36,285 nt of DNA from Chrysochromulina tobinii (GCA_001275005.1 JWZX01001576.1:1-36285), one strand, 5' to 3'. Shown: positions 2,544 through 36,285, numbered from the stretch's first letter. Numbers and translations: made by a program. The notes: generated from the letters alone by a model not told the origin.

Positions 2544-5534
2544 CGCGTGGAGACGCTGGGGAGGAGCCGTGGCGCTCTTCCGAGCTGGTTTGGGAGCAGC
2601 GGGTGCGCGTGCTTGGACACGCAGAGGCGTCGGATTGGTCGCTGCGCCTGAGGGCGTGGGGGCGTGGGCCTGGGGTCGTCGAGGGCGCCGTGGTGGTGGG
2701 TAGCCCCAGCGGACCTGACCCCCAGCGCTCCGATGGCCCCGCAGCCCAGCTCGTCGAGGCGCTTTGCTCGGCGTTCGCATCACGTCTGATCGAGGCGGAG
2801 GTGATCGAGGCGCTCGATTTCGTCCTGGCAGCTCTCCCGCGCACGAGCGCTGCCGGGATCACAATCTCCCCCGTGGCCCAGCGTCCACCCTCGCCCGTGC
2901 TCAGCCAGCAGCCCAATTTCATTCGCCCCTCTTCCGCGTTCGGCTTCCTCACAGGGCTTCCCTCCCTCCCTCGGCTGACGCCCCCCCTCTCCGACCCGCT
3001 GCCCCCACTGGTGCGCCGTGTCGCCTTTGCCCTCTGCGCCGCCAGTGCCGCCGGCTCGAGCGCCACGAGCCGCATGGCTCGCCCTCTCCTCATGCCGCGC
3101 TGGGCATTACGCCGCGTCGCGCACCTCGTTTGCCGAAGCATTGCAGAGCTGATGCCCCACGCACTCGCACCGTACCTCGTGTGCGCGACCGCCGCGGGGG
3201 ACGACTTCTTAGATGAGCAGTGGCAAAGGACCCCCCCCTCTACGTCCAATGAGTCTTCCGTCCACCGAGGGCAAGAAGTGGAGCCCTGTGGGGAACAGTC
3301 GAGCGCCGCGCCCGACGAGCACAGCGCTGTGCCGAGCGCCTCTGGCGCAGTGCCGAGCGCCTCTGGCGCTGTGCCGAGCGCCTCTGGCGCAGTCGGGCTC
3401 GTGCCTCCGCCGATACGTGTGCCGCCCATCTCGGCGCCCATCGGGTCCATCGGCGCCACGTCATCATACGGGGCCTCGGCACCAGCTGACCAGCTCAAAG
3501 GCGTTCACAGCGACTCGCCGTTCACAGCTGACCAGCTCTCGGGCGTGCGCGTGGCGAGCTGCGTGCTGCTGCTTGCCCTGCCCCTCTCGAGCCCCATCAG
3601 CCCGAGCACGAAGCAAGACGAGAGGTCCAGCCGCCTCGTGCTGCTCCACCTCGGGAGTGCCCTGGACGGCACCAGCGAGAACATCTCCACCCAAGCTCGC
3701 GCGGTGCACGACACTCATCGTATTTACTCTTCGGCGATTGGCTTCTCCCGTAGCGACGGCGCAGGGGCGGGCGCGCTGCCCTCGGCTGTGGGAACTCCTT
3801 CGCCGGCGGCGCCGCAGCTGCCGCCAGAGGTGCTTCCCTTGATGGCCATGCTGGACATGCAAGGGCAGCTCACGCGTCATGCGATGACGCTCCTCCCGCG
3901 CCGTGCCGAGCGCGATGGGCTCGTCGGCACCGGTAAGCCAACGCTCCCAACGACGTGCAGCTCGCCCCCGATCTCGGCGCCCGCTACGACGCCTTTGGCG
4001 CGGGAGCCTAGCAGCAGCAGCGGCGGCAGCAGCGGCGGCGCAGGAGCCCCCGCGGCCACCAGTGCCGTAGCCGAGGGCTCGAAAGGAAGCCGCGAGTCGA
4101 GCCGCGCCGTGCCGGGCGCCGTACCGGGCGCCTTGCCGGGCGCTGGGCAGGGCGCTGGGCAGGGCGTCGGTACAGGCGCCGTATCGGGCGCCATGGTGGG
4201 CGAGTCGATGGCAAAGGGAATGCCGCGCACCTCGCCGAACCTGAGCCGAACGGGCTCGGATTTGAGATCAGAGCTGAGACGCACGGTGAGCCTCGCTGCT
4301 GGCTCCGGGTACGACCCGAACATGAGCCGCACCGGCTCGAAGGGCGATGTGCATCGCGATGTAATGCCCTCCCAGTCGAACAAGCTCGCTTCGGCCTCGT
4401 CGGCGCTCTTGCATGCGGGCAAGCTGCACGAGGCGGCCGAAAGCGTGCTGCGCATTGCACCGAGGCTGCACACGTGGAGGCGCCCGCTTCTCCTCGTGCT
4501 CAGAGGCAACGGCAGCGGCGCCGGCGTCAGCGCCGGCGCCGCCACTGACACCGAGGCGGAGGCCGACACGCCCGAGGCAGGCCTCTTTGGGTGTTCTCGA
4601 TCGCGATCTCCGATGCATCTCGGCAGCGAGGACGGCGCCATGTCTTCGATCGTCTCCTCATTGAGCGTCTCGCCCCCACCGGCGCGATCGCCGCCCGCCG
4701 GGCTCGCGCACTCGCCCGTCGAAGGCCTCATCCTAGGCAGCCCCCCGTTTGGACTTGGCACCGCGCCGACCGGCACCGCGCCGACCGTGCATGGCGTCTC
4801 GCTCGCGACGGCTGCAAGCGCCGCCGTCCACGCTGAACGCGGAATGAACAACAGCCCCACTGTGGCCGCGGTCTCTGCGGCGTTTGAGCGTGCGGCGCTC
4901 CGCCAGGCATACTCGGAGCTCTCGTCCAAGCTGGTGCTCATGGTGGCGGAGCGCCTTGCCGAGCGGCTGAGCCAAGCTGGCCCGTACGCGGCCCATCACT
5001 GCCCGCCGCCCGCTACGGGCGCGGGTGCCATGCAGCCCGAGGGCGCCGAGCTGGGCGATGAGGCTGCGGAGGGCGTCGAGGAGGGCGTGTTCGAGGGGCC
5101 CAGAGCGGACACGGCGGCGGCGGGGGGGGTGCAATTTGTGCTTGCGCGCCGTCGCCGGTGCATCAGCCTGCTGCGACTGTCCACATCGGGGGGCGGCGTG
5201 CGCTGCGCCGTGCATCTGCTCGGCAGTCCGCCGCTCGAGCCGCGCGTGCGTGCGCGTGCTGCGGGTCCGTCGAGCGTCGTGCCGAGCGGGGGGCTCGACG
5301 CGAGACGAGACGACGAGACGGTGAGCGTGAATGCCCAACGCGACGCGAGACGAGACGACGAGACGGTGAGCGTGAATGCCCAACACGACGCGAATGCCCT
5401 CGCTGCCGAGGGTGCAGCAGCAGCAGCGCCCGAAGGGGGTGGCGACGGGACGTCCGAGCCGAACCGACAAGTGATCGTGGATGCAACCACGCATGAGAGC
5501 CGAGCGGCCGCGGCAGGTGCGGAGGGCGATGCCC

Positions 5535-12986: not shown

Positions 12987-15900
12987 ATGTTCTTCCCTTT
13001 ATCGCCGGCCGCAGACGTGGTGGCTCTCGATGCAGGAAGGAGGTTGCTTGCGCACCAGAATTGCACCTGCCGTGAGCTCTCGTGGCAGCTGGCTCGCACT
13101 TGCGCCGGCGTGCTCGTCGGCACCCTCGAGCGCCAGCATGCCGCAGTCGTCGAGACTGTGGTGCTGGCAGCAGAGGCTAGCCGCGCAGCAGAATGGTGGC
13201 AGCTAGCAGCAGGCAGCCTCATCAGCGCGTCGCTGCTCTACCACCACGGTCGCTGGATGGTGTGGATCTTACTCTCGATAGGTATTCTTTCGGTGCAAGC
13301 GCTCTACGTAGGTTGGCAAACGTGCATGATCTTCTTCAACGTCGTCTTATGTGCGCTTCCGCCGCTGAGCTGCTGCTTCCGCCTCCGAAGCTCGGCTTGT
13401 TTGCTCCTGCCTGCTCCTCCTTGATCGAAGCTCACTGCCACGCGCCCTGCCCCGTGTCAGACACTTGGGTGCGCAACGTCGGCGTTGTGTTCTGGTTGTG
13501 CGAGTCATCATACCGCTGGGTGATGGGAGGAAGCATCCGCAGGCGGTGGCGGCTGCGCCGCCGGCTGATGCGTGCAGTCACGTGGCGCGAGTACTCGGCG
13601 GCGGGTTTGGAGCTCGATGAGCTCGATGGGCGCGATCCATGGCGCGACTCACCCGCAGGCTACGGAGCGTCGGGTGTGACGACCGCCGCTCGCCAGCTTC
13701 GAGAGGCTCGAGAGGCTGGGAAGCGCGAGCAGCTGATGCAGCTGATGAGCACCATGATGGTTCGTAACCACCTTCAAATCGACCGACCGGCGCTGCACAC
13801 CGAGTGCCGTGTGGGCACCAAGCGGTCCATCGAGCAGCTCGTCACAGAGCAGGTGGCCGCGCTTCGGTGGCTCGCACAGGCTGCCAGGCTCGACGCCAAG
13901 GCCGACGCCTCCTCAGTGCCAGCGGCCATCGACTTCTTCGAGCGCAGCATCGTATGCCTGGGGCACACGGCCCTTTGCCTCTCCGGCGGTGGCAGCCTCG
14001 CCATGTATCGTAAGCACTGCCGCAGTCGCAGCGCGCGCACCGCCGCCGATCCTCACGCGAGGCGAGATTGCGATCTTGAGTTCCTGAGATCCGCCGCCGC
14101 CGATCCTCACGTGTGGCGCACCCCAATTTCTCAAGATCTCAGCTCATAACTCGCTTGCATCTCGTGCCTGCCGGCCGCAGACATGGGCGTCATCAAGACC
14201 CTCATCGAGAACGAGTGCATGCCGAGCATCGTGACGGGCACCAGCGGAGGCGCCATCATCGCGGGTATGCTCGCCATCTCCTCGGACGAGGAGATGCTCG
14301 AAAAGGTCATCCAGCCGGACATTGCGGTGCGCTACCCAGAGCGCTGGTTCCCGCCCATGGAGCAGCAGCTGTTCAACTACGTGCGCAACGGCTGCCTCGT
14401 CGAGCACGACGAGTTCGCCAATTGCTGCCGTCGCTATTACGGCGACGTGACCTTCGAAGAGGCGTTTGCTCGCACGGGGCGCATTGCAAACATCAACATC
14501 TCGGTGGGCGCGCGCCAGGGCGGCGTGGGCAAAAAGGCGTTGCTGCTCAACCACCTGACGGCGCCGCATGTGCTCATACGGTCGGCCGTGCATGCGTCGT
14601 GCGCGCTGCCCACGGTGATGCACCCGACCAAGCTGCTCATGAAGGGTGCCAACGGCCAGATAGAGCAGTTCGAGAAGGAGTCCCTCGAGTTCATCGACGG
14701 ATCCTTCACAGCAGACATCCCACGCCGTAGGCTGAGCGAACTGTTCCACGTGACGCAGGACATTGTGTCACAGGTGAACCCGCACGTGGTTGCGATGCTG
14801 CACTCGCGCCAACCGGGCGCATCGGCTGCCTACTCGCCGCTCCATCGCGTGCAGCAGCACTTCCTCGGAGACGTGCTCCATCGGCTCAAATACCTCGCAC
14901 GGCTGCGGCTGCTGCCTGCCATGTACGGCCAGGACATCACCGCAGCGATGGAGCAGCGATACACGGGCGACGTGACCATCGTACCGCGGGTGGGTGGGCC
15001 CTACGCGATCATCAAAATGGTCCAGAATCCTTCGCGCGCCATGATGACGCGCTACATCGCCGAGGGGCAGCGCGCAACCTTCCTGAGGCTCTCGCACATT
15101 AGGCATCTCCTGTCACTCGAGCAGGCCCTCGAGGCTGGGCTCGCCACCCTTCATGCTGAGCGACGCAAGCTCGAGGCTCTGGGCATCCTGCCGCCCTCCG
15201 ACCCCCGGACCCCATCGGCGGGGCAGCTGCGCTCGGGCACGGCGCCGGCACCGCTGCTGCGCCGCTCGCTCTCGCTGCCCCTCGGGCGCGAGACGCGGGA
15301 GGCGAGGCAGAGAGCCGAGGCCGAGGCTGTGGCCATGGTATCCGCATCGGTCGGGTCCGGGGGTGTGCCTCGACTGGCCACGTGGAGCGGTCCGTCCCCT
15401 CCCCCTCACCCTACCCTGTCGGATGCCCCAGCCGCCGCGGCGCCGTCCCGAGCACTCGGCCGCGCCCACCGACGCGCTGTGTCGCACGCGAGCCGCCTTG
15501 ATGACTGGCCATCCGCGGGCGGCGCTCAGGGCATCGGCGCTCAGGGCATCGGCGCTCAGGGCATCGGCGCTCAGGGCGTCGCGGGCACAGCCGAGGCGGA
15601 ACCAACGGACCCTCGGCACGGAAGGTGGCTCTCGACCTTGGTCGACTCTCCCTCTGCCGAGGCTGCCGACGGCTCCTCTGAGCCTTCACCTACCCTCCGA
15701 CTGCCAGCCGCGGTGGCGCCGACCCCCCCCAACCCGCGCCAGACCCGCGCCTCCCCGCACGCGGCCAATTGTGAACGCGAGAGCGGCTCGCCGACACGAG
15801 AGCGAGCCCCGAACAGCGCCGGCGGAGCGGCCGACGACGATGCTCGCTCGAAGCGCCTCCTCTCCGAGTCCATCAAACACAACAAGGCGCTGCAGCAGCT

Positions 15901-20684: not shown

Positions 20685-21782
20685 ATGATGAAAGTGCTCA
20701 TCGCGATTCTTCTCGCCGCGCCAGTCGCCGCCGCCGCCACCGCAAATTTGCGTGGGCGCTTGGTGCATTGATGCACCGCAGATTAACCTGACCGCATTCG
20801 GCTTTCCAAGCTGTTTTAATGATTGTGGAGCGACCATCTTGGAGAAAGCATTTGGCTGCAACTTCTGTGCGCAACCGGAGGTGGCGCCATCAACACGGGT
20901 TGCGCCACTTCCTTATGCGCGGATTGCCTGGGACCTGGCAAGCAGCAGATGTGCGCCTTGTGCAACGCCTACAAACTAACTTTGACGCCGCCAAAATCCA
21001 TCTTTGATGCGTACACTTGCCCCTCCCTTGGGCCACTGACGTGCGACACGATCAGGGCGGGATTCGAGGGTTGCACCAACGACTGCAGCCAGGCTGACTA
21101 CAAGAACATCCTGACCGTTACTCTCCCCTTGTTCATGACTACTACCGCGGAGATTGCTCAGTACACCACTCTCCGGGATACCTGCACTGTCCTTCCTCCC
21201 AGTCCGCCGCCCCCGCCGCCGGCGGCGAAGGCCGCCGACCCATGCTTCCCCAGCGATGCGCTCGTCACGATGGTGGACGGCACGTCGCGCCGCCTCGACG
21301 CGCTCCGCGCGGGTGACACCATCGTCGCCGCCCGTGCCGACGGCGCCCTCACCAATGACATCGTCTCTCCTCTCTCCCTCGCCGACGCGGATGTGAAGGG
21401 CACAAGCTTTGTGGTCCTCACGACGGAGTCTGGCCGCGAACTCACGCTGACGCCCACGCACCACGTGCCGGTCGGCGCCACGTGCTGCGCCAACCTCAAG
21501 GAGGCCAAGGACATCGTTATCGGCGAGACTGTCTATGAGGCAGTTGTGAGCGCTGCCGTGCATGCCACGCAGGTCAAGAAGATTGGCTCGGTGACCAAGT
21601 CAGGCCTGCACTCGCCGGTGCTTACGCACGGCGCGATGCCGATCGTGAACGGCGTGGTGACGTCCTTTGACTCCATGGAGATCGTGCGCCTTGCCACCTA
21701 CGGGCTGCCCCTGCTCGAGGCGACTGGGCTCACCAACACCTTCCGTGATGCTGTCCTCGCCCAACGCAAGTACATTGCCTAA
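20685..21782 (+). CDS. Secreted Cys-rich protein with C-terminal Hint/Hog (Hedgehog-intein) autoprocessing domain; 5' structure unresolved
   Basis: DP|CFPSDALV (block A), LTLTPTHH (TxxH block B) and GLHSP...IVNGVVTS (C-terminal block). Signal-like MMKVLIAILLAA starts at 20685 and a PPSPPPP linker precedes the Hint domain. Frame continuity between 20720 and 20870 needs an intron or two frameshifts. Confidence 0.85.
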
Positions 21783-22559: not shown

Positions 22560-23941
22560 TCAACACTCATCAAGCTCATCCATGCGTACCACCGAGACAG
22601 CACGCGCTCTTCGCTCGGCCGCTGCCACGTCGAGATTTACCACCGACGGCACGCTCGGCCGCTGCCGCGTCGAGATTTGAGCAAACGAGCGCTCTGCCGC
22701 AGCCGCGGGCGACTGGGCGCTGCTGGAATCGTCAGGGAGAGGCTCGTCCACCGTTCGCCAGGCGAGGTCACAGCATAAAGAGACGTGGTCGCTGGGGAAC
22801 TCGGCGGATGGAATCGCCACATCGCGGATCAGTTCCTCCGACGGCGGGATCGGCGCCGTGCCCAGGACATCCAGCTGGGCTGCGTCCGCACAAATCCAAT
22901 CCAACGCATTCAGGTACGCTCGCGTGGCGTGAGTCGGCTGAGTGTGGAGCCCGTAGGCGCTCCGTAGCCTCCACGGCTGGCTGAGCTGCGCTCCCGCGCT
23001 CGCCTGGGCCAGCCTCGCTTGCAACTCCTCCTTCGCCTTCTCGGACGGTGGCGCGCCTTGCGTGTGCTCGCGCGCGAACTCGTCGCTCAGTCGAGCGACC
23101 TGCTCCCGCAGAGACGCCGCCGCTTCCTCGAGCTGCACGCCCAGCTCGCCGAGCTGCACCGCCGCCGCCTTGACCACCGCATCGCGATCGCGCTCCAAGG
23201 CGCCGCGTGGCAGCCCGAGCTGCAAGCTGATCTCTTCGGCGGCGAGCACGGGAGAGTCGAGCAGCGTGCGCCCAGCCTCCACTTCGGCGGCTAGGCGGGC
23301 GGCCCACGCGGTCTCCGCCGCCGCAGCCCCCGGCCCGTCTACGTGCAGGCTGACTTCCCTCGGCACATCGCGTGACAGTCGCACGCACTTGATGGCTCGA
23401 CGCAGCCTCTGAAAGCGCAAGGCCAGCTCCTTGGCACCTTGGAGGGACACCTGAGCCGGCCCCACTGGCGGCGGTGGCTGCTCGGCAGCGCCGCTAAGCT
23501 CGAGTGCTGGCGTGGGCAGGCTGAGGGCAGCCGGTCGCCGCCCGACAGCATCGACAGCTCGACGCTCTGCGGCAACGACGAAGCTCGAGGGCGAGGGAGT
23601 TGTGACGAAGCTCGAGGGCGAGGGAGGTGTGACGAAGCTCGATGGCGAGGGAGGCGTCCTTGTGGACGGTGGCACCGGCGACGCGGCTGCCGTCGGCCTC
23701 GGTGCGTCGGCTGGGCCATCCGCGGCTCGTCGGATCGTCGGCTCGTTCAAGCGGCCGAGGGCCGCACGCTTCGCGTCGTACTCCAGGCCTAGGGAGGAGG
23801 ACCACATGAGAGCGCCGTGCAACCAATCTGGATCGTCGGGACCCACGCATCCTGCCGTGAGCAGGCGCAGCACCGCATCAGTCGCGTCGCTGTTGAGGTC
23901 GCCAGCTACGATGAGCGCCGTCGGGGGCGCCGCTGCTGCTG

Positions 23942-23973
<32 letters not shown>

Positions 23974-25397
23974 TCGCCCGCCGTGGGCGTGGAGGCCTGC
24001 ACAGCGAGCCACTCGCGGGCGTGCCACAGCAGGTGAGCCGTCTGCATGACCCGCACGTGAACCGCGGGGTTGGCAAAGTACAGGTGCGTGTTGGCGACGA
24101 GGAGCCGTCGGCCGTTAGCTCGTGACTTGAGCAGCACGAGCTGACCCACCGTGGGCAGTGAGCGCATGCCCTCCGCTGTGAGCGGCTGCGCCCTGAGCAG
24201 CGCGCCGAGCTCCGGCGGCGCGTTCGTCGCGCAGTCGAGGGCGACAACGCGCGACTCTAGCACGTCAAAGGCGCTCTCACGCACAAACAGAGCGACGCCT
24301 TCGCTAGAGCTCTCGCCGCGCTTGAGCGCAAAGTGGCCTGCAAAGCCCGCCGCGCCCATGTGCGGCTGCCAGAGCGTCTCGAACCAGTCCTTGTCCACCT
24401 CCTGCAAGCACACGACGTCAGCGTCAAAGTGGCGCACTTCATCGATGAGCCTCGGCATCCGATGCGCGCCTCGGGTGAGAGAAGGGCTGCAATAGGAATG
24501 AACCGAGCCGGGCTCATCCCAGTGGCGCGAGTACGTGGCGGCCATCAAATTGTAGCTCAGCAGTCGGAAGCCCTCCCGCGCGCTCGAAGCTCTGCCGGCA
24601 CGCGCCGCATCCAGTGCCGCCACGCGCTCACGGAGCAGTCGGCGCACAGGCGGCCTCTCCACTCGGCCGACCGCCTCCGCCACCCTACCGAGCACGGCGG
24701 CCGCGCTGGCGGCCATCGCCTCGGACTCTTGGGGGCTCAGCTTGGGGATGAACTTCGGAGCGGGTGGCTCGGCACGCACGCGCAGCACGGCGCCCACGTC
24801 TGCGTCGGTTGGCATGTATGATCGTGCAGTGCAGACCACCACTGATTCCCCGGCGTCGTCGTGTCGCGTCCACACGAAGGTGCACTGATCGGCATCGCAG
24901 TTCAGGGTAGCAACAAATGGCAGCAACGGGATGCCGATCAGCGGCGCGGCCGTCAGGGAAAGCGCCTCAATTTCCGGTGGGTCGAAATGCACCGGTCGGC
25001 GTTCGGCGCCAATATCTAACCATGCAGCGCTTGCCCATGCCTGTTGCACGGGCGTGCTTGATAGAATGAGTTCGCCTTCGGCATTCGAGAGCGAGCAATC
25101 AGCCGTGGTCTCGCCGGCAGGGTCTTGCTTGGCCGCCTTGGCAGCCTTTTTGCTGACCGTTGCCGTGATCTCGCCGGCAGGGTCTTGCTTGGCCGCCTTG
25201 GCAGCCTTTTTGCTGACCGTTGCCGCACTCAGCCTATTGAGGCTCCGATCGAGATTTTCCGTCAGCGGCCGAAGAAGCGTGCGTGGTGCGCTGGCTCCCC
25301 TGGGCCAGAAGGTGATCTGCAGCTGGCTCTGCGTGCTCCTTACCACCACAGGAGACATGGCGGCGGCGGTGGCGATGGGAATGATTCGGAAATTCAT
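22560..25397 (-). CDS. PDE12: PDE12/CCR4-like EEP-family phosphodiesterase/deadenylase
   Basis: Motifs LLSYNL, VCLQEVD, NTHLYF, AGDLNS, LDWI and PSDH. PDE12-type N-terminal region (R...ENLDRSLNRL; YMPTDADVGAVLRV). First ATG at 25397. Confidence 0.85.
25106..25225 (-). repeat. 60-bp coding tandem duplication (ATVSKKAAKAAKQDPAGE x2)
   Basis: Near-perfect direct repeat. Confidence 0.9.
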
Positions 25398-25589: not shown

Positions 25590-28402
25590 ATGGCTCGCTT
25601 GAGCCTGCTGCTGCTGCTATTGGCGCACGTGGGCCGCACGGCTGCCAAAGGAGCCGCTGCTGCACACTCGAGGCCCGCCGTGAGCATCACATCTGCTTGC
25701 GCCATCCCGGATGGGTCAACCGCCGCTGCCACGCCGCTCGCTTTGAGGAGGCTACGCGCCTTGCGAGGTGGCAACACGGAGACGGCTACGACACGGGCTC
25801 GGGCGAGGCCCGAGGACGACGCGCCGATCGGACGCATGCGCCTGGTCGTGGCGACGGGTCGCGCCAACGATCCCTCTGTCGTCGAGATCAGCAAGGCGGA
25901 CGCTAAGGCGATGGCGCTTGAGGAGGGCGCGCACGTGACGCTGCGCGGGCGCAAGCAGCGGCGGACGACATGCGTCGTGCTGGTGTCGGACGAGCTCAAG
26001 GCCGGCGAGGCCCGCCTCTCGCAGACGTCTCTGAACGCAGTCCGGCTCGCCGACGGGCAGGACGTCATCGTCGCACCAGAGCCCAATCTCGCCGAGGCGG
26101 AGCGTGTGCTGCTGCTGCCCTTCAAGGCGTCGCTGACGGCGGCGGATGTGGACAGCGAGAAGGCCTTCGAGCTTGGCCTCGCACCTTACCTCAAGGGCCA
26201 GGACAGGCCGCTCACAGTCGGCGACATCATCGAGACGCCCCTGCCCGACTCTGGCGCGATTGTGCGCTGGAAGGTGCTCGAGCTCGAGCCTCCTGCGACG
26301 AACCCGATCGAGGCGGCGAGGGGCACGGTGGGTGCAGAGACGCTGGTCTTTGCCGAGGGCGAGCCGCTCGAGGAGAAGGACGACCTGTCCGGCGATGACG
26401 ACATCATCGGGTACGACGACATCGGCGGCCTCGACAAACAGCTCTCGATGTTGCGCGAGCTCGTCGACCTGCCGCTGCTCCATCCGGTCGTCTTCGACGA
26501 GATCGGCGTGCGCCCTCCCCGCGGTGTGCTGCTCGTAGGGCCGCCGGGGAGCGGCAAGACGATGGTGGCGCGGGCGGTCAAGTCCGAGACGGGCGTGCAC
26601 TTCCAGACCGTCAACGGCCCCGAGGTCATGTCGAAGCGCAGCGGCGAGAGCGAGGCGGGACTACGCAAGATCTTCGCGGACGCCGAGGCGAACTCGCCCG
26701 CCATCATCTTCATTGACGAGATCGATGCGATCGCCCCCAAGCGCGAGAAGGCGCAGGGCGAAATGGAGCGGCGCATCGTCTCGCAGCTGCTCACCCTCAT
26801 GGACGGAATCAAGCCCACCAGCCACGTCATCGTGATCGGAGCAACCAACCGCCCCTCCATCCTCGACTCGGCGCTGCGCCGCTTTGGCCGCTTCGACCGT
26901 GAGATCGACCTGGGCATCCCGGATGCGGCCGGTCGGCTGCAGATCCTGACGAAGAAAGCGAAGGGGATGCGCTTCTCGGCCGAGGTCGACCTCGTCCACA
27001 TTGCCGACGACACGCACGGCTACGCAGGCGCCGACCTCTCGCAGCTCGTCACCGAGGCGGCGATGCAGTGCGTGCGCGAGCGCGCGGGCGACATCGACGT
27101 GGACGCGGAAGATGTGGACCCGGAGGTGCTCAACGCACTCATGATCACGCCAGACCACATCAAGTTCGCCATGGACAAGACGGCGCCCTCGTCACTGCGC
27201 GACAAGGCCGTCGAGATCCCCGATTGCTCGTGGGAGGATGTGGGTGGGTTGCTTGACGTCAAGCGCGAGATGACGGAGACGCTCATGTACCCGCTCAAGT
27301 ACGGGCCCAAGTACAAGCGCTTCGGGATGCAGCCCTCCAAGGGGGTGTTGCTCTACGGCCCCTCGGGCTGCGGCAAGACGCTCGTGGCCAAGGCCATTGC
27401 CAACGAGGTGCAATCCAACTTCATCAGCGTCAAGGGGCCGGAGCTGCTCTCGATGTGGTTCGGCGAGTCGGAATCAAACGTGCGCGAGCTCTTCGACAAG
27501 GCGCGCGGCGCGGCGCCGTGCATCCTCTTCTTCGACGAGATCGACTCGATCGCCAAGCCGCGTGGCTCTGGCGGCGCCGGCGGCTCCGATTCGGGTGACC
27601 GCATCGTCAACCAGATCCTCACGGAGATCGACGGCGTTGGCTCCAAGGGATCGGTGCGCGCGTGCACGCCTCGCCAGACGCCCTGCATGCCTCGCGCCCA
27701 CCCACGCTGCCGGCCCGGCCTGGCCGCTAGCTGCCGCGGGGATGTCGAGGACGAGCAACCCAATCCATGTCCAACACCGAGCGCGTCTGTGAGGACCGCT
27801 ATTGTACCATCAAATGCCGAGGCGTCCCACGCAGGCCCTAACCCTAACCCTCAGGCAGAGGAGCCGAGGCTTCCGAAACTGCCGCGAGGCCGCTCCGAGG
27901 CCGAGGCCCTCCTCTCTTGCCTTGGCGTTCGCCCCTCTCGCGCCCGCCGACCCCCTCATGACCGCGCCCTTCGTCGCCCGCTCGGCAGGTGTTCATCATC
28001 GCGGCGACCAATCGACCCGATATGCTCGACTCGGCGGTCATGCGCCCCGGCCGGCTCGACCAGCTCGTGTACCTGCCGCTTCCCGACCTCGAGTGCCGTC
28101 GCGCCATCTTCGGCGCCGCCACTCGCAAGTCACCGCTCGCCGCCGACATCTCGCTGGACGACTTCGCCGCACGCACAGAGGGCTACTCGGGCGCCGACAT
28201 CACCGAGCTGTGCCAGCGCGCATGCAAGCTAGCCATCCGGCAGCACATTGCCGACGCCAGCGCAGGCGCGCCCGAGGACCAGCGCTGCACCATCATCACC
28301 TCGGCCCACTTCGAGGAGGCCTTCAGCAAAGCTCGCAAGTCGGTCACTGCCGCGGATGTCAAAAAGTTTGAGACCTTCCAGGCATCGATGCGCGCTCGCT
28401 GA
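25590..28402 (+). CDS. CDC48: Cdc48/p97 AAA+ ATPase with bipartite leader (probable periplastidal SELMA sCdc48); exons 25590-27653, 27989-28402; 825 aa
   Basis: N-domain, D1 (GPPGSGKT, IFIDEID, ALRRFGRFDRE) and D2 (GPSGCGKT, FFDEID, MRPGRLDQ). Splicing restores GSKGS|VFIIAATNRPD. N-terminal signal-like MARLSLLLLLLAH plus a basic leader containing LRGG; no C-terminal HbYX tail. Confidence 0.93.
27654..27988 (+). other. Spliceosomal intron of CDC48 (335 nt)
   Basis: GTGCGC...GGCAG, phase 0. Contains CCCTAACCCTAACCCT at 27836-27851. Confidence 0.92.
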
Positions 28403-29081
28403 TGGGCGGGCCTAGCGCCGTGCGCCCCTCACAGGTGCGATCGAAAACGTGGGACAAGGGGACAAGGGCCTTGGTTCCAAGGGGGAGCCGGGGGGGGCAC
28501 GCAGCCCACAATTCCCGAGGCCGGGTGTGATGCATACCCGTGTGAGCCAATAAGCCGTGAGCTCCCGTACAGTGTGCCCTTCAAGCTATGTGTGTTTGGA
28601 CGAGTATAACACAATGTGCGGAAAGGCCAAAGAAGCGGTTCACACGGCATTGGCAAACGGGGTCCGGTCGCGATCGCGCGTCGCGGGCGCGCCGACACGC
28701 GATCGCGCGGTCGCGGGCCGCGCCGACCGCGCGTCGTCGGGCCGCGCGCGGGGCCGATTAGTTCGGCGCGGCCAGGATCGACGGAGGATGTGCTTGGTCC
28801 GTGCTCGTGTAGGAAGCGGTCTGCGCTCGTGCGGTGTGCGAATACCACAGTGAGCCTTCAATGCGCCCGTCGATGCGCCCGGCCATTCACGACCGACACC
28901 CTGGGTGCTGCAGCCTACCGAAAAGCCTACTACACTCACCACTTGGAGTGCGCGCCATGTATATCCCCGAAGGACCATCCTCAGCCCTGGATTCAAGACG
29001 GTCTCAAAGGTGACTCTCGGGCGGCCGCCAGCCCCTGTCGCCTCCGTTGGCCGCGCACCTGTCGCGGCAGGGGGGTCGCCG

Positions 29082-29242
29082 CACTGAGTTCAAAATCAGG
29101 TGGTGGGGATAGTGTCTTAGTGTGTGAATCCAGAAAGAATACCCTCCCCTACCCCTTTGGGTCAACCACTGAGTTCAAAATCAGGTGGTGGGGATAGTGT
29201 GTGAATCCAGAAAGAATACCCTCCCCTACCCCTTTGGGTCAA
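29082..29242. repeat. Intergenic direct repeat, 2 copies (84 and 76 bp)
   Basis: cactgagttcaaaatcagg...ctttgggtcaa at 29082-29165 and 29167-29242. The first copy has 8 extra nt (cttagtgt). Confidence 0.92.
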
Positions 29243-29537
29243 GCGCGGTGTTTCTGACGTGCTGTCTGCTGAAGGGCTGTCGCTCCCCGCCCGGCCCCGC
29301 TGTGGAGTTACGTAGTTTGTGAATAAAATTATACCGCCGGTAGGTTCGAGGAGCAGCTAGCCCTTGGCATATATGTCCAGAGCAGTGTGATGCACCTGGT
29401 CCAAGTCGCAAGTGTGGCGTGCTTCATATGATTTACAGCCTTAGAAGGGACCCTGGAACGCCTGGTTCCCTTCCACCCTTGACCTTCCACCCACTTGTGG
29501 CCTCAGCCTCGACAAGGTTCGTCCCCAAAGCCGAACG

Positions 29538-29594
29538 GCGCTCAAGACGACGCTCAACATGACGCTCAGAACGACGCTCAGAACGACGCTCAGA
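29538..29594. repeat. 12-bp tandem repeat (gacgctcagaac-like) at the bestrophin stop and 3' UTR
   Basis: About five imperfect copies. Confidence 0.8.
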
Positions 29595-31236
29595 ACAGTC
29601 CTTCGATCGCGGCCATCTCGGCTGGGGGTGCCGAGATCGCCTCCTGGAGATTGGCCATGATGATGTTGCACAGTGCCGTCATCGGCACGATCTCGAACGG
29701 CTGCTCCACCTGTGGGGAAGGGGAGCGCCGTGGTGAGCACTTGCATGCCGGGCGAGATCTCGAACGGCTGCTCCACCCACCTGGACACCCACTTCCTCGA
29801 TGCCCACGAAGATGTACACAATCAACGAGACCCAGAGGGCAATTGAGATCGGCGACATCGCGCCCGCGAGCACGAAGGGCAAGGTCGCGATCCACAGCAC
29901 GAGGCTGCGCACCTGCATGCAATGAGGGAGGCCATCAGTGGCAATCGGTGGCACTCGGTGGCACTCGGTGGCACTCGGTGGCAATCAGTTAGCAATCGGT
30001 GGCAATCAGTGGCCATCACAGCACGAGGCGGCGCACCACGTGACGCGACATGGTGGGCGGCACAGGCGACGAGAAGAGGCGCTCGCAGCCGCCCACGACC
30101 AGATTCAGATCCTCCAGATTCTGCTCCAGCTTCCGGTGCAGGTGGGCGGGTAAGTTCCCCGAACGAAATTGGCGATACAAGTTTCGGCGCAGCGCGCCCA
30201 GCAGCACGAGAGGTCGAGAACGCTGTTGGGACATCCACTCCGCCTCGGCCTTCGGGAGCAGTATGGAGAGCACGTTGTCCGAGTACACATCCGTATTTCG
30301 GATCGACGATGGTCCCGTCAGCTTCGCGTTCAGCTCCCAGCACCACGCTCCGAGGTACCTGATGAGGGATGCAATCAGCATGCAATCAGCATGCAATCAG
30401 TAGGCAATCAGCATGCAATCAGCATGCAATCAGCATGCAATCAGCATGCAATCAGCATGCAATCAGCTTCGCGTTCAGCTCGCAGCTCCACGCTCCGAGA
30501 CAGCGACACGTATCGCTGCGCCTGATGAGGGAGGCAATCAGCATGCAATCCGATACCGACACGTGTCCGCTGCGGCGCGCTTGGCTTCGGTCGGGCACGG
30601 CACGTCCGGATCAAAGAGCAGGGCCGTGGCGGCGTTCTGAGCGATCTCGCGGCACAAAAAGACGGCTCGGCCCCACAGCAGGCGTGCCTCGCTGAGTCGC
30701 TGGTACGTGTTGTTCGTCCGGAAGACGAGAAGCAGGCCAATCGCCGACCCGATCAGACCGTGAGGACCCGCCGCTGTGCGAGGAAGCCAGCGCGTCGGCA
30801 GTGACGCGACGAGGAACGCCCATGCCGATGCCGCGAGCATGATGGGCCAGAGTGCGGTCAGGATCGTCGAGTGGCGCCACGTGCGGATCGCCGCAAACCA
30901 GCGTCGGAAAGGCGGCCTGCCCGTGTACTGCTTCCACGTCTTGTGGTCAAAGAGCCGCGTATATGAAGGCTCGCCCGAAATGATGCCCGACACCTTGTAC
31001 ACAGGATTGAGACCGGCTGCACGCCACAGGCTCATCTGCACCTCAGGCGACTGATCCGATGGGCGGAGCGCGCGCACAGCTGCAAGCTGCGCTGAAAGCT
31101 CCTCCAGCACTGGGCGGACGGTGGTGGTTGCCAGAGGCGTGCCGCATCTTTGGATGGGTCGGACGATATTCATTCGGCCTCTCGGAGGCGAGACCACGAG
31201 CGCGCACATGCACAGGCCCATGGTGGTGACGATCAT
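29590..31236 (-). CDS. Bestrophin-like anion channel (UPF0187/VCCN1/BST type), probably plastid-targeted; exons 31236-30557, 30358-30037, 29912-29781, 29709-29590; 417 aa
   Basis: LLLVFRTNNTYQR..EARLLWG, GGCERLFSSPVP..MSRH and GIEEVGVQVEQPF are restored by three phase-compatible GT-AG introns (30556-30359, 30036-29913, 29780-29710). Hydrophobic start followed by a basic transit-like leader. Confidence 0.9.
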
Positions 31237-34124
31237 GGCGTCGCTGGATTCGTGAGGGTCGGGGGTACCAGTACCATGGTATGGGCAGCGAGAGGCGTCG
31301 CAGGATTCCTCGTGTGAACGTTCACACGACAGACGCGACAACCAGGTATGAAAACGACCGCTTTTCTTCACATTCCCGGATATGAACCTGAATGGACCCG
31401 GCGAGTATCCGTGAAAAACGGCGCGTCGCAGTCTACCGCGCGGCACACGATTCTAATTCGCGCTCACCGCTCCATAAGGTGGGGTGGCAGCCCCCCTGCA
31501 AACGCTGCCTGCCACTCCCCCAAAGTCCGCAGCCCGCAGCGTACTGCTTTGATCATTCCGCGGCGAGCTCGGCCTTTCGGGCGAGCTCCGCGGAGATCGT
31601 CGCGAGCTCATGAGCCGCACTCTTGACCTCCGCGGCGTGCTCGGCGTGCGTGGCGTCCCATGGCGGCTTCGCTGCCGCCGCCTCCATCGCCGCCACAACG
31701 TCTTCCAAACGCTCCCGTGTCGCTCCCACCGCGGCGCGCGCCGTCGCGTACCTAATTAGGGTGGCACGCATGGGCTCAATCAGCTGCACGCTCAAGTCAT
31801 CAGCTGCCATCACAAGGCACCGTCGCGCACCGATGCTGTGTGAGGATGGTCTGCACGCTGATGAGGGAGGCAATCATGGGCTCATCAGCTGTCATCAAAG
31901 GGCACCGTCGCGCACCGATGCTGTGTGAGGATGGTCTGCACGCAAATCTCGAGGAGGCGAGATGGCAGCTCTTCCGATGACGGAGACGCCGGTAGCGCCG
32001 TGTCGGGCGTGATAGGAGACATCGGTAGCGCCGTGTCGGGCGCGAGGGGAGACATTTGTGGCGCCGTGTCGGGCACGAGCGCTTGCGACGACGCTGCGAG
32101 CGCCCACGTTCTGGCGAGGTACTGTAGGTCGTCACTCGGCTTGCGCAGCAGCTGCCACTCAGGGCACGAGAGCTCGTCTGGAGGCACCGACGCGTTGAGC
32201 CTCTCGAACAAGCTCGGAGCACTCAACTGTGAGGGCGGCTCGAGCAGCGCGGAGAGTAGCTGCCGTCGGCGCTCGGTGCGCATGGACACTCCCGCCTCGT
32301 CCGCCCTATTCTGATCCAACAAGCCGTAGAGACGGCACACCGCCGCCCCATACTCACGCACCCCCGGCCGCTGCAGCAGCACATGGAGGAGCAGCAGCTC
32401 CGCCTGGTCACGTAGACCGGCGTGCTCCAGCCCCGTACCTGTGGGTGTGAACGCGCTGTGGTGAGCACATGCATGCAAGGCCGGTCATCAGGTGGCAATC
32501 AACGTCGAGCTCCAGCTGCGTACCGCGTGAACGGGAGCCGGACACATTCGACCCGATGGCCGCCGCCGCCGCCGCCGCCGCCGCCGTGGTGGTGGTGGTG
32601 GTGGTTGTGGTGGTGCCGGTGGCGGCGGCGGCGGCGGCGGCGAGTCGGGCGGCAGTGGCGTCGGCCGGTTCGTTCGCGACAGCACAGATAGCACACAGAG
32701 GCAAGGAATGGAGCTCTGCCAGCGAGGGGGGCCGTGGCCGAAGTCGCTCATGTGCACACGATGACGTGGCGATCCAATGGAGCGTATCCGGCACGGCGCT
32801 CCAAACATAAAGCTCATCAAGCCTCACCTCGAGCTCCGCTAATCTCGCCAGTGGAGGTCGTGCAGCCGAACGTGCAGGGGCTCGCGCCGCCGAGCGCGCC
32901 GTCGTGGGCGCTGACGACGGCGCCGGCGCCGGCGCCGGCGCCGATGACGACGAAGCTGACGAAGCGGGGGGCGAGAGAAGGTGTAGGCTTGCGTGGAGGT
33001 CGTCGCGCAGCTGGGCAGCGAGCGTGTCGTCGTCGGCCGCAAGCAGCCGAGCGAAGAGATGGATGTGGATCGATCGCTCGACCGCGGTACGCAAGTGGCT
33101 GAGCAAGGCCACCAACTCCTTCACGCACGCTTCGAGCTGGCCTGTGGACCGGCTCGCTTGATACGGCGCGAGCACCGATCGTCCCACCCACTCGACCCAG
33201 GAGGGCGCCGTGTCGAGCACCTGCATGCAACGAGGGAGGCCATCAGGTGGCACTCCAAGTGGCCATCATACGCGGGAGCGTGGGCGCCGTGTCGAGCACC
33301 TGCGTCTCGAAGGCGCGTCCGGCCGCCTGAGCGGCCGCTGCGGCGCCATCGGGGCCGACCGCAAACGCGGGCTGCGAGCGGATGGCGCCACGCGATGCCT
33401 GCACGTACTCGTCCGGATCCTTGTACGGTGTCGGCATCGTAGCGATGCGCACGTCGATCCCGCGAGCGTTGAGCCGAGCGAGCGCCCCACTCTCATAGAG
33501 CCGACGCGTCGCCTGCTGACCGGCCTCATCCGCATCGAGGGCGAGGACGAGCGTTCGGGACGGCGCGCCCGCGAGCAGCGGCGAGATTGCGAGCTCGAGT
33601 TGGAGATCGGTCAGAGCGGTGCCCAAGCACGCAACAGCATACCTGCGACAGAGAGCGCCCAAGCGCACCTGAAGCGCAATCAGCGGCCATCAGTGGCCAT
33701 CAGTGGCCATCAGTGGCCATCAGCGGCCATCAGCGGCCATCAGCGGCGGCCAGCGGCGGCGACCAGCGGCGACCAGCGGCGACCAGCGGCGACCAGCGGC
33801 GACCAGCGCAACTCCGCGCACCGTATCCCGACCGAATGCAGCGCGATGGCGTCCATGTACCCCTCGACGATCACCGCGCGCCCCGCCCGACGCATGGCTC
33901 CTTTGGCGAGGTGGTACGCGTACAACGTACCTGTGGGGAGGAGAGGCGCCGTAGTGAGCACTTGCATGCGCGAGGTGGTATGCGTACAACGTACCCCCTT
34001 TCGAGAAGACGGGCGAGTCGATCGAGTTGAGGTACCTAATAAGGCAGGTCATCCGGAGGGCTCAGCTCACAGAGGTCATCACAGAGGCCATCACAGAGGC
34101 AATCACAGAGGTCATCACAGTTAC
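29710..34124 (-). mobile_element. Set of nine related repeat-filled introns (candidate introner-like or duplication-born introns) at 29710-29780, 29913-30036, 30359-30556, 31752-31915, 32439-32523, 33221-33299, 33643-33821, 33931-33994, 34036-34124
   Basis: Shared 3' cassettes, 10-12-mer internal repeats and duplicated flanking exon sequence. The introns themselves are well supported; mobility is inferred. Confidence 0.5.
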
Positions 34125-34990
34125 TTTGGGTAGAGGGCCTCCCTGCCCGGTTCGGGCGGCTTGAGGGCGCGCCCGCCAAAGGCGATCACGCGCCCGTGCG
34201 CGTCGTGGATCGGAATCATCAGCCGCGCGCGGAAACGGTCGTAGCTCTCGCCGCCGGTGTCGATGATCAGCCCGGCCTGCACGCACGCGGTGCGCGACAC
34301 GTTTGGCTGGCTAGCGAGGTACTTGGTGAGCACCTTGCCGCCGGCCGCGAAGCCGAGGCCGAAGCGCTCGGCAAGCGCGTTGTCGATGCCGCGCGAGCGC
34401 ATCTGCTCCGCGCACAGCGCCGCGTCACTTCCGGGCAGCGCGCGCGCACGCCGCGCCTGCTGGTACGCCGCCGCGGCCGCCTCGTTCGCAGCGACGAGGG
34501 CCTGATGCTCGGCCGTGAGCGGCGGCGCTGCCGGCCAGCCACCGGCGCCGAGCTGCTGCGTGTCGATCGCGTCGGCGCCCTCCACGTCGTACCGGCGCGC
34601 AAGCTCGGCCAGCGCCTCTCCGGTCGCCATCCCTTCGTGATGCTCCAGAAAGGTGACGGCGTTGCCGCTCGCCTCGCAAGCAAAACAGTAGTACACGCCC
34701 TTTTCGTCGTTGATGGACATCGAAGGGGTGCGCTCCGTGCCATCGCCATGGAACGGGCAGCGCGCCATAATCTTGCCGCCCGAGGCCTGCACGTGCACGC
34801 CGCTGTCGGCGATCACCTCAGAAAGCTTCGCCGCGCGGTGCACGGCCTCTCGAAAGCTGCTCAGTCCGCGGCGACGGCCGGCGCCGCCATCGGCGCCCGT
34901 TGCAACCATGCGCAGCGCCTGCGACACAACGCGCGCAGGGAGCGCCCTCCGCAGCAGCGACGTCATGAGGAATAGCCAGACGCCGCGCAT
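31553..34990 (-). CDS. dnaG: Bacterial-type DNA primase DnaG, nuclear-encoded and organelle-targeted; exons 34990-34125, 34035-33995, 33930-33822, 33642-33300, 33220-32524, 32438-31916, 31751-31553; about 925 aa
   Basis: CHC2 zinc finger (CPFH...CFAC), DRFRARLMIPI...IAFGGR, PKYLNS, and TOPRIM motifs VEGYMD, LGTALT, LDADEAG, KDPDE. All six introns are GT-AG and phase-compatible. Exons 5-7 are less certain than exons 1-4. Confidence 0.9.
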
Positions 34991-35202
34991 CCGGCTGTGA
35001 TGACACTGTGGCGTCGTTTCGAGCGTTTAGGGCCAAAGCGACGCGGCAGCAGTCTCGTTCAACCACGTGGAGCCGTGCGTGGGGAAATAAGAGATAACGA
35101 TGTGCAGTTCGGTACCGGGACAAGTCAATGAAAGAGATCAATGCGACAGACTCTACACAGGTTGAGGCCCGCGCTCATAGTGCTCATGTCCGCGCTGGGC
35201 CG

Positions 35203-36105
35203 TCACGGCAGCTGCAGCCGGTACAGCCGCTCGCCCTGCAGGTGGAACTTGCGCTCGAAGAGCGTGAGAGCGTCGTCCTCGTGGCGCAGCGGCGGCAGCT
35301 CCGTCAACAGCCGCCCTCGGTGCCCATTCATAGCCACGCCACGGGCGCTCAGCCTCGACGCACACAGCCGTGCCGCCGCCGTGGCCGCGCTGTCCTGAGC
35401 GCCGCCCTCCTCCTCCTCCTTCGGCCAGCGACTGACGGCGAGCTGCACCGCGTCGTTCGCCGTGCCGGTCAGCGAGCGCGCCGCGCCCAGGAATTCGTTC
35501 AGGTAGACGTTCCAGTTGGAACGGATCTCTAGTGTTCCACCGAGGCCGCAGAGAACGGGCAGCGCCGGGTGTCCGTGCCATCGCAAGTTGAGCCTTGCGG
35601 CCTTCGGGTACGGGTTCGGGTAGAGGAGAAAGTGGTGTCGCACGCGTGCCGCGCTCAGGCCGCTCCTGCCCGCGCCCTCCACGTCGCGCTGTAAGAGTAG
35701 CCGCCAGAACGAAGAGCACTCGGCGCGCACGAGCAGCGCATTCGGAGGCAAGGGCTGAGCCGACGCCTCCAGACGAGCCTCCGATCGATCGAGGCCGATG
35801 ATGGCTGCGTCGGGGTGCGCCCGCGCGAGCATGCACGTCGAGCGACCCGTGCCGCAGCCTGAGTCGAGGATGACTGGCGGGCGGCCTTCCAAGCCTTGGA
35901 GCCACGCCTCCGCTCCTTTGAAGGCATCGATTGTCGGTGCATGCAGTGGGCTCGCCAGGTAGCGCGGCAGGTGCTCCAATGAGCGCAGCCCGTAGCGCTC
36001 CACATTCGGGTGGGCCACCTGCGGGTATACCGCAGCGAGGTTGCTGCACTGCATATCCTCGGTTTTCGTGTAAGGGAAAGTGCAACCGCACGGTGGTGTG
36101 AACAT
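35203..36105 (-). CDS. Class I SAM-dependent methyltransferase, TrmB-like (tRNA m7G46 family)
   Basis: ILDSGCGTG (motif I), IGLDRS, LLYPNPYPK...RWHGHP, LEIRSNW and TLFERKF. Start codon uncertain. Confidence 0.8.
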   Translation of the reverse strand: MFTPPCGCTFPYTKTEDMQCSNLAAVYPQVAHPNVERYGLRSLEHLPRYLASPLHAPTIDAFKGAEAWLQGLEGRPPVILDSGCGTGRSTCMLARAHPDAAIIGLDRSEARLEASAQPLPPNALLVRAECSSFWRLLLQRDVEGAGRSGLSAARVRHHFLLYPNPYPKAARLNLRWHGHPALPVLCGLGGTLEIRSNWNVYLNEFLGAARSLTGTANDAVQLAVSRWPKEEEEGGAQDSAATAAARLCASRLSARGVAMNGHRGRLLTELPPLRHEDDALTLFERKFHLQGERLYRLQLP

Positions 36106-36285
36106 GGGGGCACTTGCAGAGGCAAGTGCGAGTGACGAGGCCGCTTACTACGCAGGCCGTGCCGTGCTTCCGGAAAAGGAAACAATCCTATCCAAATGTT
36201 TAGAGTGCTACCGCCGGCTTCCCCACCCCCGTTTGTCGTTTCTCGTTTCGGTGGTGAGGTTCTCTTACTTTAGTCACTTTAGTTC

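Follow-up and report, generated by a model that had tools for sequence, protein, structure and literature searches.

How new introns arise is a long-standing open question, and part of it is whether existing introns can seed others without a transposase (for general background, see PMC3296678, PMC11282704 and PMC8469720). The question is raised here by a stretch of 36,285 nucleotides from Chrysochromulina tobinii (GCA_001275005.1 JWZX01001576.1:1-36285), referred to below as the window. Between 29592 and 34966, its minus strand carries a bestrophin gene with three introns and a primase gene with six. A preliminary description had proposed that they come from an intron-generating system, in which an acceptor-bearing cassette is inserted with a long, variable target duplication whose exonic GT becomes the donor.

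Nine introns in two genes of a haptophyte

With the nine introns removed, the two genes have open frames of 417 aa and 917 aa, respectively, and both products carry the Pfam domains expected of them. The closest named protein matches were to Prymnesium parvum (63%) and Phaeocystis antarctica (74%), so that the host is a haptophyte. The features are as follows.

31552..34966, minus strand: host gene, DnaG-type primase, 917 aa once spliced (Pfam PF01807, PF08275, Toprim)
34036..34124, minus strand: primase intron P1, 89 nt; family-type repeats and acceptor, without long duplication; junction predicted from the frame
33931..33994, minus strand: primase intron P2, 64 nt; 25-nt copy of the next exon start, core and CCCCACAG acceptor; junction predicted from the frame
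33643..33821, minus strand: primase intron P3, 179 nt; 10-nt repeat array, without long duplication; junction predicted from the frame
33221..33299, minus strand: primase intron P4, 79 nt; copy of the next exon start and family acceptor; junction predicted from the frame
32439..32523, minus strand: primase intron P5, 85 nt; 17/21 copy and diverged core; spliced in X15 RNA contigs
31752..31915, minus strand: primase intron P6, 164 nt; 12/14 copy and nested second insertion; spliced in X13 and X15 RNA contigs
29592..31236, minus strand: host gene, bestrophin, 417 aa once spliced (Pfam PF25539; homologue alignment)
30359..30556, minus strand: bestrophin intron B1, 198 nt; two nested events; spliced in X12 and X13 RNA contigs
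29913..30036, minus strand: bestrophin intron B2, 124 nt; 19/20 copy, 10-nt repeat array and acceptor; spliced in RNA contigs
29710..29780, minus strand: bestrophin intron B3, 71 nt; GTGG, 21/21 copy, core and CCCCACAG acceptor; spliced in RNA contigs
29725..29748, minus strand: family core, 24 nt, holding the presumed branch point GCTCAC

The six identities first reported between an intron start and the start of the next exon were reproduced exactly (24/25 at 33994, 18/18 at 33299, 17/21 at 32523, 12/14 at 31915, 19/20 at 30036 and 21/21 at 29776). Their match scores ranged from 9 to 22.5, whereas the nine intron starts, cross-paired in 72 combinations with next-exon starts other than their own, scored 6.5 at most. 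The downstream exon begins with GT at all nine introns, as described. Donors were refined to 34124 (P1), 33821 (P3) and, for B3, 29780, before the 4-nt GTGG. In B1, the copy of the next exon is displaced by a second, nested insertion: an inner 59-nt copy spans the exon junction, and 36/41 nt of the next exon start lie at 30503-30463. With this copy added to the six, the footprint is present in seven of the nine introns. The nested insertion of P6 comes with a 61-nt duplication (58/61) that begins at CG in the upstream exon; the nested events of B1 and P6 start at non-GT sites (GC or CG). Neither core nor duplication was found in the window's two other introns (14010-14180 and 27654-27988).

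RNA contigs corroborated five of the nine predicted junctions (B1, B2, B3, P5 and P6). They skip 198 nt at B1, 85 nt at P5 and 164 nt at P6, while B2 and B3 were confirmed jointly: 130 nt are missing in X13 and X15, as predicted, and a donor at 29776 would give 134. The junctions of P1 to P4 are supported by the open 917-aa primase frame and its Pfam hits; the RNA pieces of X13 and X15 end at 34122, adjoining the P1 donor. Four sequencing runs (X18-X21) that had almost no shared words were left out. The claim that the protein is left unchanged held for bestrophin, whose spliced product is free of gaps at all three intron positions against the 8 of 26 homologues that were aligned.

The introns are short (64 to 198 nt) and contain no ORF. 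Rfam gave no match at E<=1 across 28500-36285, and neither group II RNA structure nor an intron-encoded protein was found (Rfam; introns without ORF). There was no consistent fold across the six introns examined; B3 folds through pairing of its 5' and 3' parts (z of -2.9), and the other five folded stretches had z values from -1.6 to 0.6. The intron anatomy of the proposed system was borne out, but no dedicated enzyme, and no reverse transcriptase or transposase family, was detected among 12 window ORFs or exons, so that a "system" is something we infer.

A family of truncated copies with long target duplications

A 20-nt core motif retrieved 137 metagenome stretches, from 4 of the 64 parts of the collection. 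Since many of these stretches are probably assemblies of the same organism, sites were de-duplicated: 170 with sufficient flank gave 139 unique ones, 105 of which end in a pyrimidine tract plus AG. The family is dense in the motif-fetched loci, with 249 unique core copies (<=5 mismatches) in 285 kb versus 0 to 2 for shuffled cores, and the GCTCA columns of the core are 95 to 100% conserved. Members are alike over part of their length, not end to end; two loci with unrelated genes (L041 and L063) have in common a 23/24-nt extension. Of 147 pairs of neighbouring cores less than 600 nt apart, 137 have both cores on one strand, and there are places where an exon piece and its cassette are repeated together as a tandem array. 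Viral contigs gave one match, at a contig end, in one search and none in another.

At the 105 acceptor-bearing sites (class I), 87 of the next exons start with GT and 9 with GC. The next-exon start recurs upstream in 80 of them (score >=10), compared with 0.5% of permuted pairs and 2/104 shifted controls, and the expected cassette with its long duplication and GT donor was thus recovered well beyond the window. When 77 sites (score >=12; the tandem array at locus L023 excluded) were aligned with gaps, the duplications proved to be 13 to 63 nt long, with a median of 29. Ahead of the core there are 0 to 35 nt of filler; overlap with the core, that is, microhomology at the left joint, replaced it in only 8/77 sites. 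Upstream exon ends matched intron 3' ends at chance level, bar three nested cases. The targets often have a latent-donor form: GTRNG was present at 44/70 of them versus 135/731 exonic GTs.

The two copies of a duplication diverge by 6.2% on average, and this divergence is overdispersed (chi2 of 109, df 76, p=0.008). With a relaxed core, the duplication was detectable in 66/85, 21/31, 9/23 and 8/14 sites at 0, 1, 2 and >=3 core mismatches, respectively, a rough age gradient. Together, overdispersion and fewer detectable duplications beside diverged cores lend modest support to the graded ages first proposed.

The scope of the phenomenon is wider than was first claimed, with a mirror, donor-carrying class and acceptor-less core inserts besides the nested non-GT events. 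Acceptor-less cores make up 34 of the 139 unique sites, and direct repeats flank 19 to 20 of these 34 (null of 10 to 13%). A donor-carrying full-length form of about 70 nt also exists, and 12 of 15 donor-carrying starts come after AG. In the mirror class (class II), 8/14 inserts end in a 15- to 39-nt copy of the upstream exon end (null of 2.3%; one window site that belongs to class I is omitted from the 14), which in most cases supplies the acceptor. Either end of a family intron can therefore be exact, the exact joint being AG|GT in most cases for class I and class II alike. Inserts are cut off at either end, with variable ends on both sides. We saw neither terminal inverted repeats, the one inverted pair (5 bp) lying inside one acceptor type, nor any poly(A) or fixed tail. 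A count of 48/106 for a second acceptor type was discarded, because its palindromic motif also matched cores of the first type on the opposite strand.

Target-primed reverse transcription gives a fixed 3' end, a ragged 5' end and a variable duplication. A SINE-like retro-introner, for which a LINE-type endonuclease and reverse transcriptase would prime on intron RNA, matches the geometry of class I in its exact AG end, 5' truncation and variable duplication, and the exact ends of classes I and II correspond to the 3' and 5' ends that an intron has once excised. Of the introners that have been classified, about 5% were assigned to non-LTR elements (PMC12130899). However, the lack of a poly(A) or fixed tail, the inserts that stop inside the element (the acceptor-less cores), the exact 5' end of the mirror class and the lack of a reverse transcriptase or transposase family among 12 window ORFs or exons all speak against this explanation, which we consider possible but doubtful.

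The same loci contain 130 plain tandem duplications with a median of 27 nt. Their length is a multiple of 3 in 89/130 cases versus 26/77 intron duplications, an absence of frame bias in the latter that would be expected if splicing frees them from the frame. Given the similar sizes of both kinds, a single duplication process, with or without an insert, is suggested. This richness in tandem duplications and in exon-piece plus cassette arrays could also be taken to mean that the introns are older, the duplications having arisen by later slippage around them, the core being a long splicing signal and empty alleles being precise losses, which direct repeats would favor. But slippage would not place a copy of the exon start right behind the upstream exon, with the old donor traceless at most sites, and the core mismatch levels resemble the divergence of the duplications. 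With the match of the L085 insert to its neighbour, described below, we regard great age as quite improbable.

Polymorphic sites and the proposed copying of existing introns

Comparison of orthologous loci, which the preliminary description had called for, yielded presence/absence differences at two sites. Locus L011 and the identical L042 are without an 81-nt segment that L085 carries; the L011 and L085 alleles differ at 11/521 other sites (about 2%). The segment, an in-frame predicted intron, consists of a perfect 33-nt duplication starting with GTGAGT and a 48-nt cassette. The empty site is spanned without differences by a 699-nt contig of DNA run X1, and a neighbouring family intron at L011 is spliced in X12 and X15 RNA contigs. 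At the second site, L114 has a 33-nt duplication that L050 lacks, enclosing no more than about 9 nt from the acceptor end.

The L085 insert also points to its source. It has 53 consecutive nt in common with an intron 476 nt away in the same gene, a stretch absent from every other fetched locus, and there is microhomology of 2 nt at the left joint and a 4-nt match (G|GTG) at the right one. The empty allele and, in this one case, the identity to a neighbouring intron are direct observations, as are the anatomy and the splicing. Gain is the likelier direction at this site, although precise loss via the direct repeats would yield an identical empty allele. Thirty-three identical nt at about 2% allele divergence are on their own weak evidence that the L085 intron is young; against its being old, the insert equals its neighbour over 53 nt, though tails vary widely in the family. 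The data support existing introns, rather than one fixed cassette, as the source.

An assembly artefact caused by repeats is very improbable. All the DNA evidence consists of short-read contigs, and some repeats are longer than the 31-nt word size, but the duplicate copies differ by about 6% on average, the RNA contigs skip exactly the predicted lengths, the X1 contig crosses the empty site and the pattern is repeated in assemblies from several sources.

Our preferred reading, to which we give roughly even odds (about 0.5), is that a staggered DNA break is mended by copying a stretch of a family intron already present, with microhomology at AG|GT as the guide, and that selection retains those products that can be spliced. 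Offset nicks about 15 to 40 nt apart would leave overhangs, and their fill-in would duplicate the target. A few matching bases, frequently those of the AG|GT boundary, would then let one end prime on an existing family intron (its DNA or its unspliced RNA); 10 to 70 nt would be copied before rejoining by microhomology. Where the duplicated target has a latent donor at its start (class I) or AG at its end (class II), the whole addition could be spliced out, leaving the protein unchanged and a new intron available as a further template. The break, the polymerase, the type of template and the direction of change are presumed in this scheme. The broad spread of duplication lengths, close to that of the plain tandem duplications, fits this scheme, and so does the truncation at either end seen across class I, class II, the core-only inserts and L114. 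Mouse cells provide a precedent, in which breaks with 3' overhangs lead to tandem duplications, sometimes with templated inserts (PMC5730883). With one family intron missing in a close relative, it is likely that intron making by copying old introns into breaks is ongoing.

Two results bear on how such copying might choose its template and target. Regarding the template, a raw count of 21/145 similar same-locus pairs looked significant, but after tandem arrays were collapsed it did not (p=0.21; 89 pairs, permutation); same-locus cassettes are thus no more alike than random ones. We discard local templating as a general mechanism; the single L085 case stands behind it. Neither local sequence nor its reverse complement was supported as a template for the variable tail (p of 0.22 to 0.98). 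Regarding the target, a rough model of random cuts plus selection predicted 7 to 48% GT starts versus the 124/158 observed, an excess that makes some targeting likely; microhomology to the AG|GT context of the source introns would provide it. Repair alone leaves unexplained why this family serves so frequently as filler. The rarity of core overlap at left joints (8/77), the chance-level match of upstream exon ends to intron 3' ends and the lack of a candidate enzyme among the window ORFs or exons also count against the repair reading.

One alternative, which we hold to be possible at most, is that the introns of this alga are themselves mobile: the AG end of an intron RNA would be joined to latent donors in transcribed DNA, by the spliceosome or by a reverse-transcribing repair polymerase of the host, and new introns would seed more. 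If so, introns would be gained in a chain reaction that needs no transposase, is still active and marks each event with a readable 30-nt scar. A specifically spliceosomal version, half reverse splicing, seems unlikely to us. Here the intron 3'-OH would attack single-stranded DNA at a donor-like GT and be joined to it, cDNA would be primed from a downstream nick in the opposite strand and fill-in would duplicate the exon start. The exact AG|GT joint in both classes, the GTRNG targets, the GT excess over the random-cut model and the common strand of neighbouring cores are all in line with it. Moreover, an intron-lariat spliceosome is able to connect a 5' splice site with a 3' end (PMC11146597), and in linear group II retrohoming the 3' joint is precise, the 5' joint is truncated and the bottom strand has an overhang (PMC3280974). 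However, microhomology to source AG|GT together with selection can equally enrich donor-like targets, the nested events of B1 and P6 start at GC or CG, and the core-only and class II inserts do not fit.

In this family, the target and both joints can be read from every event, and often the source as well. With numerous copies, at least one polymorphic site and a cultured source of runs, the rival mechanisms are therefore directly testable. Since members are alike over only part of their length, screens based on end-to-end similarity would likely miss such families, and this kind of intron gain may be under-counted elsewhere.

Comparison with known routes of intron gain

In the literature searched, where most subscription papers were outside reach, we found no account of this intron family. 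As described in the accessible parts of the reports cited here, introner target duplications measure 2 to 10 bp: 3 to 9 bp in Gozashti 2022, with a donor-carrying family of 4 bp in a marine Chrysochromulina (PMC9860276), and 4 and 8 nt in Roy et al., with 4 or 8 nt in Polarella (bioRxiv 10.1101/2020.10.14.339549). In the corresponding part of Gozashti 2025, Emiliania huxleyi fam24 has 5 copies with 10-bp terminal direct repeats, the 5' site being co-opted and the 3' site carried, and zero introner families are given for C. tobinii (PMC12130899). More generally, Rogers and Bendich reported 4- to 30-bp repeats near intron borders (PMC11782384).

Like the introners in these reports (PMC9860276, PMC12130899, bioRxiv 10.1101/2020.10.14.339549), the family described here is repeated, carries one splice site and recruits the other from a duplication; mRNA length is unchanged, and haptophytes are known introner hosts. 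Many partially similar introns lie at unrelated positions, they are spliced out with unchanged protein (five of the nine window junctions and the L011 intron) and they vary in presence at orthologous sites (L011/L042 versus L085, and L050 versus L114). In contrast to the short, family-specific duplications of introners as reported there, those found here are long (13 to 63 nt) and variable, and copies are truncated at either end. The hallmarks of DNA-transposon (MITE-type) introners, namely, a short, fixed duplication, terminal inverted repeats and fixed ends, were not found, and the geometry of non-LTR retro-introners is matched by class I and contradicted by class II and the core-only inserts.

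In the introns attributed to staggered breaks in Daphnia pulex (PMC4202315), as far as that report was accessible, there are likewise a far-end repeat of the adjacent exon end, nested secondary insertions and polymorphic alleles, and here too a direct repeat of the adjacent exon flanks filler. However, the Daphnia repeats are of 4 to 12 bp (33 cases) with inserts mostly of unknown, unrelated origin, whereas the repeats found here have about three times that length, with a copy of a single intron family as the insert. Linear group II retrohoming in Drosophila (PMC3280974) has in common with our sites an exact 3' joint, a truncated 5' joint with microhomology or filler, and a staggered cut with an overhang into the downstream exon; as described there, it is an introduced ribozyme with its own protein and the overhang is lost, while we found no group II structure or protein. 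As in tandem genomic duplication at AG|GT (PMC3296678), a duplicated exon segment provides a splice site, but here the duplication accounts for one site alone, and it is a foreign, repeated insert that brings the other site and the branch point. What is new is thus a spliced, polymorphic intron family with unusually long, variable target duplications, introner-like in its working and resembling intron gain by break repair with a recurring, intron-derived filler.

Unusual family copies at other loci

In L006, one of the loci retrieved with a 20-nt core motif of the intron family, the second core (near 1945) and a 27-nt duplication together made up 51 nt, in frame, within what we take from its appearance to be a PRP6-like splicing-factor gene; no acceptor was seen at this core. 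In L023, L039, L040, L051, L074, and L078, the unit of target piece plus cassette was tandemly reiterated, from two to several times, producing serial AG|GT sites that could act as recursive splice sites. The core was also detected at the extreme end of L138, a phage-like contig from a viral collection (positions 4495-4514), where it probably represents a junction or an assembly chimera.

Introns and exonic duplications outside the family

Both the core and the exon-start copy were absent from the following introns of the window, the first of which contained an internal 25-nt direct repeat around a 29-nt, nonfamily spacer:

14010-14180; 27654-27988: introns of patatin-like and CDC48-like genes, predicted from sequence

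Plain tandem duplications, in frame and with units of 21 to 60 nt, were numerous within the exons of the window, pointing to a general small-duplication mutator:

218-340: exonic in-frame tandem duplication
5296-5393: the same
23577-23654: the same
25102-25225: the same
31982-32080: the same

Other genes and intergenic repeats of the window

20949-21782 (+): gene encoding a Hint domain of the hedgehog/intein type
22560-25397 (-): gene for a 945-aa protein that carries an endonuclease/exonuclease/phosphatase domain
29082-29252: compound direct repeat between genes, with units of 34 and 58 nt
31280-31360: stretch upstream of a gene, with GTGTGAAC
36040-36140: stretch upstream of a gene, with the same motif

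For the 945-aa protein, which had no reverse transcriptase match, a role as a phosphodiesterase of the host seems likelier than an origin from a LINE. In DNA sequencing run X1, the summed contig depth in the bin of the compound repeat was ca. 19,600, versus ca. 45 in single-copy bins, and this repeat is therefore likely a further dispersed family. Summed depth was also elevated in the bins holding the two upstream stretches (ca. 7,700 and 8,200, respectively). Their common motif, palindromic at 31280-31360, possibly marks a repeated promoter element or a small mobile element.
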